Shown here one piece after another: positions 16,237 to 60,094 of a stretch of 64,000 bases of DNA. Both the position numbers and the translations under genes were made by a program. This stretch comes from Escherichia coli. Lineage in GTDB: Bacteria; Pseudomonadota; Gammaproteobacteria; Enterobacterales; Enterobacteriaceae. The stretch lies in the NCBI RefSeq assembly GCF_003334385.1, contig NZ_QOWN01000006.1; one strand, 5' to 3'. Position 1 is the first letter of the stretch; the number at the start of each line of letters is the position of its first letter. The notes beneath the pieces were generated by a model. That model saw only the letters and a list, made by a program, of their open reading frames with translations, did no database searches and was not told the DNA's origin.

Positions 16237-16312
16237 TCCTCTGTAGTTCAGTCGGTAGAACGGCGGACTGTTAATCCGTATGTCACTGGTTCGAGTCCAG
16301 TCAGAGGAGCCA
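16237..16312 (+). tRNA. asnT: tRNA-Asn (anticodon GUU), integration site of island 1
   Basis: tcctctgtagttcagtcggtagaacggcggactGTTaatccg...gagcca; 76 nt; identical to three other copies in the window. Confidence 0.95.
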
Positions 16313-16473
16313 ATTTTCTGTTTTCATGCATCCTTGCAAATCTTTATCTGATGTTGATTCAACAGGTTAGTGTGAAAACTCTTCTCGGTGCATTCTGATT
16401 TTACCCTACGCATCGGGAAAAATTGGTGGTCAAATCTGGGATCAGGTTAGTTCGATAATGGAGTGACCCCCAT

Positions 16474-17389
16474 ATGTTCCTTACCGACGCAAAAATCCGC
16501 ACCCTCAAGCCTTCTGATAAACCCTTTAAAGTCTCCGATTCTCACGGTCTGTATCTGCTGGTCAAGCCGGGTGGCTCCCGCCACTGGTATCTCAAAGCTG
16601 GAGGTTGCGTCCCGCACACGGCAGCACCTGAGTAACATAATGCGCCATGCGGTCCATCAGGAGTTAATCGATACGAACCCTGCAGCAAACCTTGGCGGCG
16701 TGACCACACCTCCTGTCAGACGGCACTATCCTGCCCTGCCGCTGGAGCGGCTGCCTGAACTGCTTGAACGTATTGGGGCATATCATCAGGGCCGTGAACT
16801 GACTCGGCATGCCGTTCTGCTGATGCTGCATGTGTTCATTCGCTCCAGTGAACTGCGTTTCGCCCGCTGGTCAGAGATTGATTTCACAAACCGAGTCTGG
16901 ACGATACCCGCGACGCGAGAACCCATTATTGGCGTGCGTTATTCCGGCCGCGGGGCAAAAATGCGAATGCCGCATATCGTCCCCCTCTCAGAACAGTCCA
17001 TCGCCATTCTGAAACAGATTAAGGATATCACCGGTAATAATGAACTGATCTTCCCCGGCGACCATAACCCGTATAAGCCAATGTGTGAAAACACGGTCAA
17101 TAAGGCACTGCGGGTGATGGGTTACGACACGAAAAAGGATATCTGCGGTCACGGCTTCCGGGCAATGGCATGCAGTGCGCTGATGGAATCGGGTTTATGG
17201 GCAAAGGACGCAGTAGAACGCCAGATGAGTCATCAGGAGCGCAATACCGTGCGCATGGCTTATATTCATAAGGCAGAGCACCTAGAAGCCCGCAAAGCGA
17301 TGATGCAGTGGTGGTCGGATTATCTGGAAGCATGCCGAGAATCTTATGCACCGCCTTATACAATTGGTAAAAATAAGTTTATCCCATAG
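16474..17389 (+). pseudogene. int: P4-family tyrosine integrase of the HPI, disrupted by an internal deletion of about 350 bp that shifts frame near 16597
   Basis: N-terminus MFLTDAKIRTLKPSDKPFKVSDSHGLYLLVKPGGSRHWYLK in one frame stops at about 16635; the remainder (LEVASRTRQHLSNIM...) continues in another frame; the second integrase at 60256-61518 shows what the missing segment would be. Confidence 0.8.
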
Positions 17390-17582
17390 TATACTAACGA
17401 ATCCCTCACTCTGGCAAATTACCACCACCTCCACAGGAGGTGGTTCTATATAGACTTTTATCAACTTCATGACGAAAAACACCTATTTTATCCCAAAAGA
17501 AGACAATAGAGTCACAGAGGAATCAAAGAGCGACTCAATTGTCTTTGGACAGTCTGGTTGTGAGGTTAGAAAACAGTTACTC

Positions 17583-18887
17583 CTACACCATTAAATAGGG
17601 CGCAATGCTCGCTAATTTCTCCCGGGTTTCTGTCAGTTCGCGTTCCGGCGTAGATTGCGCGATGATTCCCGCCCCCGCCTGTATCCAGCAGCGCTGGCTA
17701 TCCTGAAATACGGAACGCAGAACTAGCGCCGCATCAAAGCGCGTATCGTCCAGCAGCAGGATTGCGCCGGAATAAAGCTCTCGCGGCGTCTTCTCAATTT
17801 GCATAATCGCGTTCAGAGCAGCATTTTTAGGGATACCTGAGGCGGTAATCGACGGAAACAGCACGGTAAACGCATCCCAGGCATCCTTGTTTTCCGAAAG
17901 CTGACCGCTCACGCCAGACCCCAGATGCTGAACGCTGCCGCGCTGGCGAACCGACATTAAATCTTCAACCACCACGCTGCCCGGCTGGCAAACAGCCTCC
18001 AGTTCAGCAATAGCTTCTTTGACAGAAAGGATATGCTCAAGCACCTCTTTACTGTCGTGCAGCAGTTCTGCCTCTTTCGCCTTATTATGCTCCGGGTTTC
18101 CCATGCGATCGCGGGTGCCCGCAAGCGGTTCAGTGACCACTTTATTGCCCATCACTGACATCACCAGTTCCGGGCTAAAGCCCAGCGCTTCGCGTCCTTC
18201 CTGACGGAACATAAACGAGCGCACAGGCGTGTTTGCCTGCCGCCCGTATAACAGCGTGGCGGGCATATCAATCCGCGATGGCAGGGGAATGGCGCGCGAG
18301 ACAATCACTTTGACATACTCGCCACGGCGGATCTCCGCAACGGCGCGCGCAACCTGTTGTTTATATGCCTCACCATTGAGGGCGGTATCCACCGCCAGTG
18401 GTGCGTTCTGCGTCGTTGTACCGGCCTCTTTTACCCACTCGCACAAACGTCGGCACCCGTCGGCGGAGTCCGCATAAACGGTGACATTTCCCTTTTCAAA
18501 AATAAGTTCTTCACGGGGAACGGTTAACGTCAGCAGCGGCCACTCCCCGGCGTTAAAGGCAATCCCCCGCGCATGCGCCGCAAAGTTGAACCCAACCTGT
18601 CCATATACCCGACGTCCTTTCACCTGAGGATGCGCCATAAAACGACGCGCGCTGTCGGCAATGGAATCCACCGCCCATTTTTGCTCCCCGGCATCATCAA
18701 TAAATGTCGCCTGCGTTCCGTCGGCATTAATGTGCAGCCGTGCCTGGCACCCTTTGCCTAAATACCAACAGGGTTGACGCTCATAGACATAACACTCTTC
18801 TTCTGCGAACTGGCGTAAAACGCCAGAAATCGTCGGTAGCCATTGTTCCTCTGGTAACGCCAGATGTAGAAATTCACTGATTTTCAT
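17583..18887 (-). CDS. ybtS: Salicylate synthase (yersiniabactin precursor), chorismate-utilising enzyme
   Basis: 434 aa; chorismate-binding-family pattern; position at the end of the ybtPQXS operon. Confidence 0.85.
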   Translation of the reverse strand: MKISEFLHLALPEEQWLPTISGVLRQFAEEECYVYERQPCWYLGKGCQARLHINADGTQATFIDDAGEQKWAVDSIADSARRFMAHPQVKGRRVYGQVGFNFAAHARGIAFNAGEWPLLTLTVPREELIFEKGNVTVYADSADGCRRLCEWVKEAGTTTQNAPLAVDTALNGEAYKQQVARAVAEIRRGEYVKVIVSRAIPLPSRIDMPATLLYGRQANTPVRSFMFRQEGREALGFSPELVMSVMGNKVVTEPLAGTRDRMGNPEHNKAKEAELLHDSKEVLEHILSVKEAIAELEAVCQPGSVVVEDLMSVRQRGSVQHLGSGVSGQLSENKDAWDAFTVLFPSITASGIPKNAALNAIMQIEKTPRELYSGAILLLDDTRFDAALVLRSVFQDSQRCWIQAGAGIIAQSTPERELTETREKLASIAPYLMV

Positions 18888-18914
18888 CCCTTACCTCTCT
18901 GTGTTATTCCCGGA

Positions 18915-58673: not shown

Positions 58674-58774
58674 GGTAAACTCCGGGCAGTTCAGATTTTC
58701 CGTTATTGTTAAAGTCTAATGCCCGGCATAACAAATAATAAAAACCCGCATCTTATTCCATCCCGATATAACGC

Positions 58775-59692
58775 TTAGCTCACCAATTGCCACTGCCTTT
58801 TTTCCATCACTGGAGAACTCATCACTGACATTAACAACTCTTTCACTGCCTGTGCCTGTGGTGATAAGTTCGCTCTGGCGGGTAAATTTAATGACAAAGA
58901 GAGACTCATGGAAGGTGTGGTAATGCGTGACATCCACCCGTTTACTGCGCCACATAACGAACGCGCGGCCGATTCGGGTAATACTGCAACGCCCATGCCG
59001 CTGGCAATCGCTGCGGTAAGCGTGGCAATAGACTCAATTTCACCAATGACTTTTGCCGTGAGCCGCCGTAGGGAAAACGCCTCATCAACACGAAGTCTAA
59101 CAGCGCTGTAATCACTGGGGAGAAAAAGGTTCATTTGTGCAATAGCATTAACATCAACGCTTTGCCCCGGGCAATCTTGAGTTCCTACCAGGAAAAGATC
59201 TTCTTTCAGCAAAGCCTGACTGGATACCCCAGCCACAGGGGAATGCTCATAAATCACCGCCATATCGAGTTGGTGATTTATCAGTTTTTCGTTAAGCACT
59301 GCACCGCTATTTTCATGAAGATAGATAACGATCTCCGGGAATTCAGCGCGAACCGCTTGTAATAAGGGCATGGTGATGGATGACGCAGCGGTTCCTGGTG
59401 CAAAGCCAATCGAGACTTGCCCCGATAATGCCTGACCAACGTTATGCACCGCCAGTTGGGCCTGTTCACACTGACGTAAAATGGCCCGCGCATGGGTATA
59501 GAGAATTTTTCCGGCGTCTGTTGGCGTAACGCCCCGCTTTGTACGGATCAAAAGTTGTTGATTTAACTCACCTTCCAGTGTGGCAACCTGCTGGCTGAGC
59601 GCTGGTTGTGCGATATGCAATACTTCAGCAGCCTGGGTCAGGCTACCAATATCTACAATTTTTACGAAGTATTTCAGGCGTCTGAAGTTCAT
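58775..59692 (-). CDS. nac: Nitrogen assimilation control protein Nac (LysR family)
   Basis: Start at MNFRRLKYFVKIVDIGSLTQAAEVLHIAQPALSQQV; 305 aa. Confidence 0.85.
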   Translation of the reverse strand: MNFRRLKYFVKIVDIGSLTQAAEVLHIAQPALSQQVATLEGELNQQLLIRTKRGVTPTDAGKILYTHARAILRQCEQAQLAVHNVGQALSGQVSIGFAPGTAASSITMPLLQAVRAEFPEIVIYLHENSGAVLNEKLINHQLDMAVIYEHSPVAGVSSQALLKEDLFLVGTQDCPGQSVDVNAIAQMNLFLPSDYSAVRLRVDEAFSLRRLTAKVIGEIESIATLTAAIASGMGVAVLPESAARSLCGAVNGWMSRITTPSMSLSLSLNLPARANLSPQAQAVKELLMSVMSSPVMEKRQWQLVS

Positions 59693-59745
59693 GTTGCCTC
59701 CGGTTTTTAAGAATCGGCCCAAGTGCCGCCATTACTTACAACCAG

Positions 59746-59764
59746 ATTGCAAGATGCTTGCCAG
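59746..59764 (-). promoter_or_regulatory. Sigma-54 promoter (-24 TGGCA / -12 TTGCA) upstream of nac
   Basis: Minus strand reads cTGGCAagcatcTTGCAat with canonical spacing; nac is an established sigma-54/NtrC target. Confidence 0.7.
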
Positions 59765-60018
59765 TTTTATTTTGACGTTGATGTACAAGCTAACCAACTG
59801 TCAAATAAGAGATTATGATAGATTCGTCATTTGCTCCTTTAATCAGCTGTCGCGTTCCCCTGCCCTATAAAAGGAGGGTATGCACCACGATGGTTCATTA
59901 CCCAATAAGATTGAAAGTTCACCACTTTGTTGAAATTGACAGCAAACAAACAAAAAAATGCATTTCACCCTTTGACATCACCATGCACTGCCATTAATAT
60001 GCGCCCCGTTCACACGAT

Positions 60019-60094
60019 TCCTCTGTAGTTCAGTCGGTAGAACGGCGGACTGTTAATCCGTATGTCACTGGTTCGAGTCCAGTCAGAGGAGCCA
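60019..60094 (+). tRNA. asnV: tRNA-Asn (GUU), integration site of island 2
   Basis: Identical to asnT; followed by an integrase leader region homologous to the HPI one. Confidence 0.95.

Follow-up and report, generated by a model that had tools for sequence, protein, structure and literature searches.

Whether identical tRNA genes serve as points at which a chromosome rearranges, and whether islands that have entered beside them can still move, are the questions raised by an Escherichia coli locus with four tRNA-Asn genes. The locus lies in contig NZ_QOWN01000006.1, of which a stretch of 64,000 nt (hereafter the window) was analysed. A preliminary description of the window had proposed that the tRNA-Asn genes asnT and asnV, together with the homologous leaders of the integrase genes behind them, give substrate for inter-island recombination or inversion across about 44 kb. 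The analysis indicates that identical tRNA-Asn copies act as rearrangement endpoints in the E. coli population, that exchange between asnT and asnV is not among the events seen, and that the two islands of the window, one of them the yersiniabactin high-pathogenicity island (HPI), have lost the ability to move on their own. ARAGORN predicted five tRNA genes in the window, tRNA-Ser(CGA) at 15156-15245 on the minus strand and four tRNA-Asn(GTT) genes, which are listed below with the promoters of three of them (att, attachment site; attL and attR, left and right attachment sites).

16237-16312, plus strand: asnT, tRNA-Asn(GTT), predicted by ARAGORN; the attL core of the HPI lies within its 3' end
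55786-55861, minus strand: asnW, tRNA-Asn(GTT), predicted by ARAGORN; the sole inverted copy
57610-57685, plus strand: asnU, tRNA-Asn(GTT), predicted by ARAGORN; the sole pristine site
60019-60094, plus strand: asnV, tRNA-Asn(GTT), predicted by ARAGORN; contains the attL core of the second island
16190-16218: asnT promoter, TTGACA-17-TAATAT
55908-55880: asnW promoter, TTGACA-17-TAATAT
59972-60000: asnV promoter, TTGACA-17-TAATAT

The four tRNA-Asn sequences were identical over 76 of 76 nt, and the coordinates, names and mutual identity given in the preliminary description all proved correct. Exact identity between pairs of copies amounts to 81-90 nt in total, with 90 nt for the asnT/asnV pair. 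A 22-nt probe from the tRNA 3' end, with up to three mismatches allowed, matched four sites in the window, namely the four tRNAs, against a chance expectation of 0. The asnU promoter (TTGACA-16-TAAGAT) is unlike that of the other three copies. The genes were identified as asnT, asnW, asnU and asnV because of the annotation and gene order of strains 4/2-1 and K-12; strain 4/2-1 is 100% identical around asnT and has annotated features at matching coordinates through asnV. A query spanning the mtfA-asnT-int-ybtS junction (window positions 14500-18000) was found at 100% identity in many RefSeq genomes. The regional order is mtfA-asnT-...-yeeN-asnW(-)-yeeO-asnU-cbl-nac-asnV, in which asnT, asnU and asnV are co-oriented and only asnW is inverted. 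This is the uninverted K-12 order, and none of the rearrangements surveyed below is present in the window. The region is very probably a known E. coli integration hotspot for islands with P4-like integrases that target the tRNA-Asn 3' end.

To survey rearrangements between the copies, artificial junctions were searched in 5,426 complete E. coli genomes, each made up of the 500-nt upstream flank of one copy, the tRNA itself and the 500-nt downstream flank of a second copy. A junction was counted if the genome matched at least 80% of the query, and the counts refer to genomes, not to independent events. The nac-tRNA-yeeN junction, which corresponds to an asnW×asnV inversion, was found in 265 genomes, including Nissle 1917 and NU14. 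The junction of the 5' side of yeeO with the tRNA and yeeN, corresponding to an asnW×asnU inversion, was present in 34 genomes and was confirmed by the gene map of strain Santai. A single genome, that of strain ET5 (NZ_CP101014.1), contained mtfA-tRNA-yeeN, the junction of an asnT×asnW inversion. The yeeO(5' side)-tRNA-ldtA junction, indicating an asnU-to-asnV deletion or a more complex event, was detected in 35 genomes; among them, Esc20 has a clean asnU-to-asnV deletion of cbl and nac with three tRNA copies left, and 2016C-3878 has a more complex rearrangement. Neither mtfA-tRNA-ldtA, expected of an asnT-to-asnV deletion with an empty asnV, nor mtfA-tRNA-cbl, expected of an asnT-to-asnU deletion, was found (0 of 5,426 genomes each). 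The junction that a deletion starting from the configuration of the window would leave, mtfA-tRNA followed by the asnV-type integrase gene, is indistinguishable from the same island integrated at asnT. Every inversion seen in the survey involves asnW.

In the gene map of ET5, the asnT-asnW block and the adjacent yeeO-asnU-cbl-nac block are both flipped, with endpoints in tRNA-Asn genes. Two of its tRNA copies carry large islands and intact integrases, with type III restriction-modification, MobQ, RepL and TIR-domain genes. Its double inversion might also be the product of a mis-assembly.

At asnT, the insertion is the yersiniabactin HPI in the truncated, immobile form known from E. coli, with the following parts.

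16313-16473, plus strand: HPI leader of 161 nt between the tRNA and the integrase gene, on the P' arm side of attL, from ungapped alignment to the asnV leader
16474-17389, plus strand: P4-type integrase (int) pseudogene of the HPI, from translation and from alignment with strain C8, whose HPI int is full-length
17583-46412: HPI cargo ybtS-ybtX-ybtQ-ybtP, ybtA, irp2, irp1, ybtU, ybtT, ybtE and fyuA, from the annotation of strain 4/2-1
46413-47417: AT-rich right end of the HPI without an att repeat; the junction with the chromosome lies at about 47418, inside yeeJ

The cargo encodes yersiniabactin synthesis and uptake and forms a complete locus adjoining tRNA-Asn, with which the layout of open reading frames (ORFs) agrees; its G+C fraction in the composition profile is about 0.56-0.62, and the island spans about 31 kb. 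Compared with the int of strain C8, the HPI int keeps 41 codons, followed by a 347-bp internal deletion (junction 16596/16597) and a frameshift, and in the RefSeq annotation of strain 4/2-1 it is labelled 'frameshifted'. The C-terminal part matches NCBIfam PRK09692. An ORF of 308 aa at 16463-17389 was considered as an intact short integrase and rejected, as it is the out-of-frame C-terminal part of the deleted gene. The deletion appears to be a minority allele: in a rough comparison, the 347-bp segment was kept in 1,985 genomes against about 2,120 HPI-positive ones. The HPI is located at asnT in about 2,050 genomes and at asnV in 74. No terminator-like site was found in the HPI leader (16313-16473), so that the HPI int is exposed to read-through from the tRNA, by which it would be expressed.

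Probes of 22 and 17 nt, with up to three mismatches, revealed no copy of the att core in the whole window beyond the four tRNAs that could serve as attR of either island; the HPI of the window therefore lacks attR. Homology to yeeJ starts at window position 47418, which corresponds to position ~276 of yeeJ in ATCC 8739, so that the first ~275 bp of the gene are lost. The K-12 asnT-yeeJ spacer was tried as a reference for this right junction and had no usable similarity; the junction was resolved with yeeJ of ATCC 8739.

The flanks of the HPI have further differences from the reference strains. The inverse autotransporter adhesin gene yeeJ (47418-49871) is a remnant from which about 3.7 kb is also missing internally: at window 47740/47741 the sequence steps from 30324 to 34017 in the coordinates of the ATCC 8739 locus. 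HPI-side DNA contains the start of the ORF at 47086-47814. On the other side, the cytochrome b561 gene yodB, which K-12 and ATCC 8739 have between zinT and serU, is missing at window positions 14487-14708, where ~220 bp replaces ~1 kb of ATCC 8739; strain 4/2-1 is likewise without an annotated yodB.

The second island begins at asnV, and only its first 3.9 kb is visible, since the window ends 240 bp past the last of the features listed here.

60095-60255, plus strand: asnV-type leader of 161 nt, from alignment
60256-61518, plus strand: asnV P4-type integrase gene, 420 codons with one amber stop, from translation and Pfam
62956-63759, minus strand: second, unrelated tyrosine-recombinase gene (Integrase_1 / Phage_int_SAM_2), from Pfam

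Codon 177 of the asnV int is TAG (60784-60786), and the rest of the frame is clean; an intact E. coli allele, 99% identical, encodes Trp there (W177). The Pfam domains Arm-DNA-bind_3 (3.8e-24), Phage_int_M (7.7e-26) and Phage_integrase (2.6e-16) were recognised, and in relatives the asnV-type int carries the RefSeq label 'internal stop'. The Integrase_1 gene is truncated as well (267 aa versus 294 aa in ATCC 8739) and is labelled 'frameshifted' in relatives. The visible part of the island is collinear with the island of ATCC 8739 at 94% identity. In the relatives AMSCJX03, ATCC 8739 and ETEC1734, the same int and Integrase_1 genes are followed by genes for an Rhs core C-terminal toxin and its immunity protein. 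In AMSCJX03, a perfect 17-nt repeat (CCAGTCAGAGGAGCCAA), which represents attR, lies 17.8 kb from asnV and is followed by the displaced asnV terminator (AATTCAAAAAAGCCTGC...), which in empty strains directly follows asnV. Relatives thus have an island of about 18 kb with Rhs toxin/immunity cargo and an intact attR, and by comparison with them the asnV island of the present strain may be of similar extent.

The asnV-island query matched 393 genomes, a count that is blind to which tRNA copy bears the island. A chimeric query for the asnV-type island at asnT matched 2,134 genomes; this number was discarded as too high, since the asnV-type int portion of that query also draws alignments from the HPI int region, and only the top single-piece hits (98.7% identity) are usable.

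Between the asnV int and the Integrase_1 gene, positions 61685-62100 are AT-rich and non-coding and contain short direct and inverted repeats of ~75-90% identity (for example, 61771-61851, and 61989-62024 versus neighbouring segments). In AMSCJX03 (locus 24685-33942) and ETEC1734 (locus 1-2750), phosphotransferase system (PTS) sugar-transport and pentose/hexulose-phosphate genes, including hxlB, rpe and an RpiB-family gene, stand between the island attR and ldtA. K-12 has no such block there. The genes may have come in by an earlier insertion at this site, one that has no recognisable att repeat.

Both insertions thus stand where they had been described, at the first and fourth copies, and the integrase modules at their left ends are related. 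The tRNA-to-ATG leaders, earlier described as homologous over about 160 bp, are each exactly 161 nt long and align without gaps at 70% identity; BLASTN of the asnT module against the asnV module returned 74.5% identity over positions 8-284 (E = 7e-47). The HPI and asnV integrases are of equal length, are 69% identical at the DNA level and 70% at the protein level, and share the Arm-DNA-bind_3 + Phage_int_M + Phage_integrase architecture. Conservation of the leader does not exceed that of the int coding region, as would fit if each integrase had diverged together with the arm sites and expression signals that belong to it. The proposal that related P4-type modules had captured different cargo holds, with yersiniabactin at asnT versus an Rhs toxin in the asnV-type relatives. 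The activity of the modules that the proposal implied does not: both integrases belong to the P4-like family by descent but are pseudogenes with interrupted frames, and the HPI lacks attR, so that neither module is capable of acting by itself.

On the proposed model of integration, the attP core of an island (17 nt, equal to the tRNA 3' end) would recombine site-specifically with any of the four tRNA-Asn genes. The reaction would rebuild the tRNA and place the 161-nt leader and int directly downstream, where int could be read from the tRNA promoter, and the native tRNA terminator would be displaced to the far end of the island, behind the 17-nt direct repeat.

The remaining two copies had been called empty, which is correct for one of them.

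57698-57716: asnU intrinsic terminator, 12 nt after the tRNA, from terminator scan and alignment
55557-55785, minus strand: putative integrase-module fossil of 229 bp downstream of asnW, from three-way alignment with K-12

The asnU site is pristine, with its own terminator directly after the tRNA, but asnW is followed by what appears from the alignment to be the fossil of a third asn-targeting integrase module. The segment consists of a leader and approximately the first 45 int codons, from which the ATG and a 70-nt stretch are deleted, and K-12 has the same segment (K-12 locus positions 15800-16027). Strain SC418 has the homologue at asnT, an intact integrase of 421 aa, which matched at ~94% identity over junction query positions 1-724, reaching 148 nt past the tRNA into the int leader. 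With the HPI-type, asnV-type and pks-type integrases, that of SC418 shares only 52% identity, and the asnW fossil and SC418 would therefore represent a further, more distant lineage.

The amber allele of the asnV int was met at several tRNA copies. The leader and int of the window, ATCC 8739 and AMSCJX03 differ at seven variable columns in a 1,424-nt alignment (~99.5% identity), none of them in the leader. The TAG codon in place of W177 was confirmed by sequence at asnV in the window and in AMSCJX03 and at asnT in ATCC 8739. In ETEC1734, asnV-type islands are located at both asnT and asnV, and in 2016C-3878 the int stands beside the yeeO-proximal tRNA copy; both carry the annotation 'internal stop', from which the amber codon is deduced.

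Several alternative explanations were weighed against these data. The view of the preliminary description, that islands actively recombine, or the intervening 44 kb inverts, by way of the asnT and asnV copies and their leaders, can draw on 90 nt of exact identity, on the homology of leaders and integrases, and on ETEC1734, in which near-identical, kilobase-scale islands lie in direct orientation at both sites. An asnT-asnV inversion was nevertheless rejected as geometrically impossible, because both copies have the same orientation; a crossover between such direct repeats deletes 43.8 kb (or excises it as a circle). The two deletion junctions starting from asnT were absent from all 5,426 genomes, the inversions observed use asnW, and past the tRNA the asnT and asnV modules of the window share only ~70% identity and no exact run above 29 nt, which leaves ~90 nt of homology usable by RecA. 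This view is accordingly considered very unlikely; of the broader claim of recombination and inversion between copies, the asnW inversions and the asnU-to-asnV deletion stand. As to the catalyst, RecA acting on the 76-90-nt repeats may have made these rearrangements. That island integrases made them instead, by recombining 17-nt att cores (attL × attB), is a serious candidate, though we lean against it. The common asnW-asnV inversion accompanies the pks island, whose integrative module is intact (Nissle map), and it has been proposed that this inversion accompanied pks insertion (PMC8209727). ET5, with two inversions, also has its two intact integrases at the affected copies. However, the yeeO inversion of Santai and the cbl-nac deletion of Esc20 have no integrase beside the copies involved, all of which were included in the inspected regions, and both integrases of the window are pseudogenes. 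Low-frequency RecA events in E. coli need no more than the ~80-90 nt of perfect identity that the copies provide.

The 229 bp downstream of asnW could, alternatively, be ancestral host DNA that was later captured as a leader by an island of the SC418 type. Its presence in both K-12 and the window implies that it is old, and it contains a hairpin followed by a T-run, a possible asnW terminator. The similarity, however, passes through the leader into int codons 3-11 and the motif KLWYMKYR..GKEKK, with frame-destroying deletions; this arm-binding motif belongs to the Arm-DNA-bind_3 domain common to all four integrase lineages. Where a site is truly empty, as at asnU and at asnV of K-12, the terminator comes right after the tRNA and no such sequence is present. 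A host origin is thus highly improbable, and a decayed integrase module is the preferred interpretation of the asnW spacer. For the amber allele, it is tentatively suggested, at rather low confidence, that an island unable to move itself nevertheless changed place, or was copied, among the four tRNA-Asn loci. The identical tRNA copies might have allowed this by gene conversion or homologous exchange, or a related resident integrase (e.g., that of HPI or pks) might have acted in trans; if so, the tRNA-Asn cluster would be a recombination switchboard for immobilised islands. A duller course of events is possible, with two island copies already in place, gene conversion carrying the amber allele from one to the other, and differential loss afterwards. 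Some points weigh against the overall interpretation given here. The genome counts overstate the number of events, because clonal relatives inflate them. The attR and cargo of the asnV island lie beyond the end of the window, its extent being taken from relatives that are ~94-98% identical in the visible part, and among complete RefSeq genomes the asnV region of the window tops out at ~97% identity.

Much of this picture is already known: the HPI at asnT, the family of asn-targeting P4-like integrases, and tRNA-mediated inversion. The E. coli HPI has been described as immobile, fixed at asnT and without the right direct repeat; the missing right 17-bp repeat defines this form, whereas the Yersinia form and ICEEc1 have the repeat (PMC8209727). 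The HPI of the window shares the asnT site, the P4-like int after the tRNA, the full ybtS-fyuA set and the absence of the right direct repeat, and differs from the usual E. coli HPI in its extra 347-bp int deletion and in a right junction that takes away the first ~275 bp of yeeJ. According to the same work, P4-like integrases of the HPI and pks target identical asn tRNA genes, int comes to lie behind the tRNA promoter after integration, and the pks colibactin island is found at asnW, asnU or asnV (PMC8209727). The HPI has also been reported at asnV within an integrative and conjugative element (ICE), HPI/ICEEc1 of ECOR31 (PMC7545054). The insertions of the window resemble this island family (HPI/ICEEc1 and pks) in their P4-type integrases of ~420 aa, in the 17-nt att core, in the use of any identical copy and in the position of int behind the tRNA promoter. 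Site promiscuity is evident from the full-length HPI-type int after asnV in the 74 genomes mentioned above and from the asnV-type island at asnT in ATCC 8739 and at both sites in ETEC1734. Unlike HPI, pks and the ICE, the asnV island of the window has no ybt, pks or conjugation genes in its first 3.9 kb.

Inversion of the asnW-asnU-asnV segment has been published for B2 strains of E. coli that carry pks (Auvray et al. 2021, PMC8209727), and its inverted tRNA-Asn endpoints are the same as those of the nac-tRNA-yeeN junction of the survey. The yeeO-only inversion, the double inversion of ET5 and the cbl-nac deletion are not described in PMC8209727 or PMC7545054. When previous literature on the family of asn-targeting integrases was searched, only reviews and the pks paper came up. 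The additions made here are minor and comprise the putative asnW fossil, the HPI int deletion and the yeeJ-truncating junction, the survey by junction type, and the amber allele at several loci.

The asn-tRNA cluster is the acquisition site of two major virulence and fitness islands of E. coli, those for yersiniabactin and colibactin. The survey indicates that asnW inversions and cbl-nac loss occur in this region, with deletion of the whole asnT-asnV block unseen in the genomes searched, and it leaves current understanding unchanged. With the HPI doubly immobilised, by the lack of attR and by the deleted int, and with the asnV int dead, both islands of the window are now fixed chromosomal DNA, and islands immobilised in this way can spread only together with their flanking DNA, through homologous recombination.

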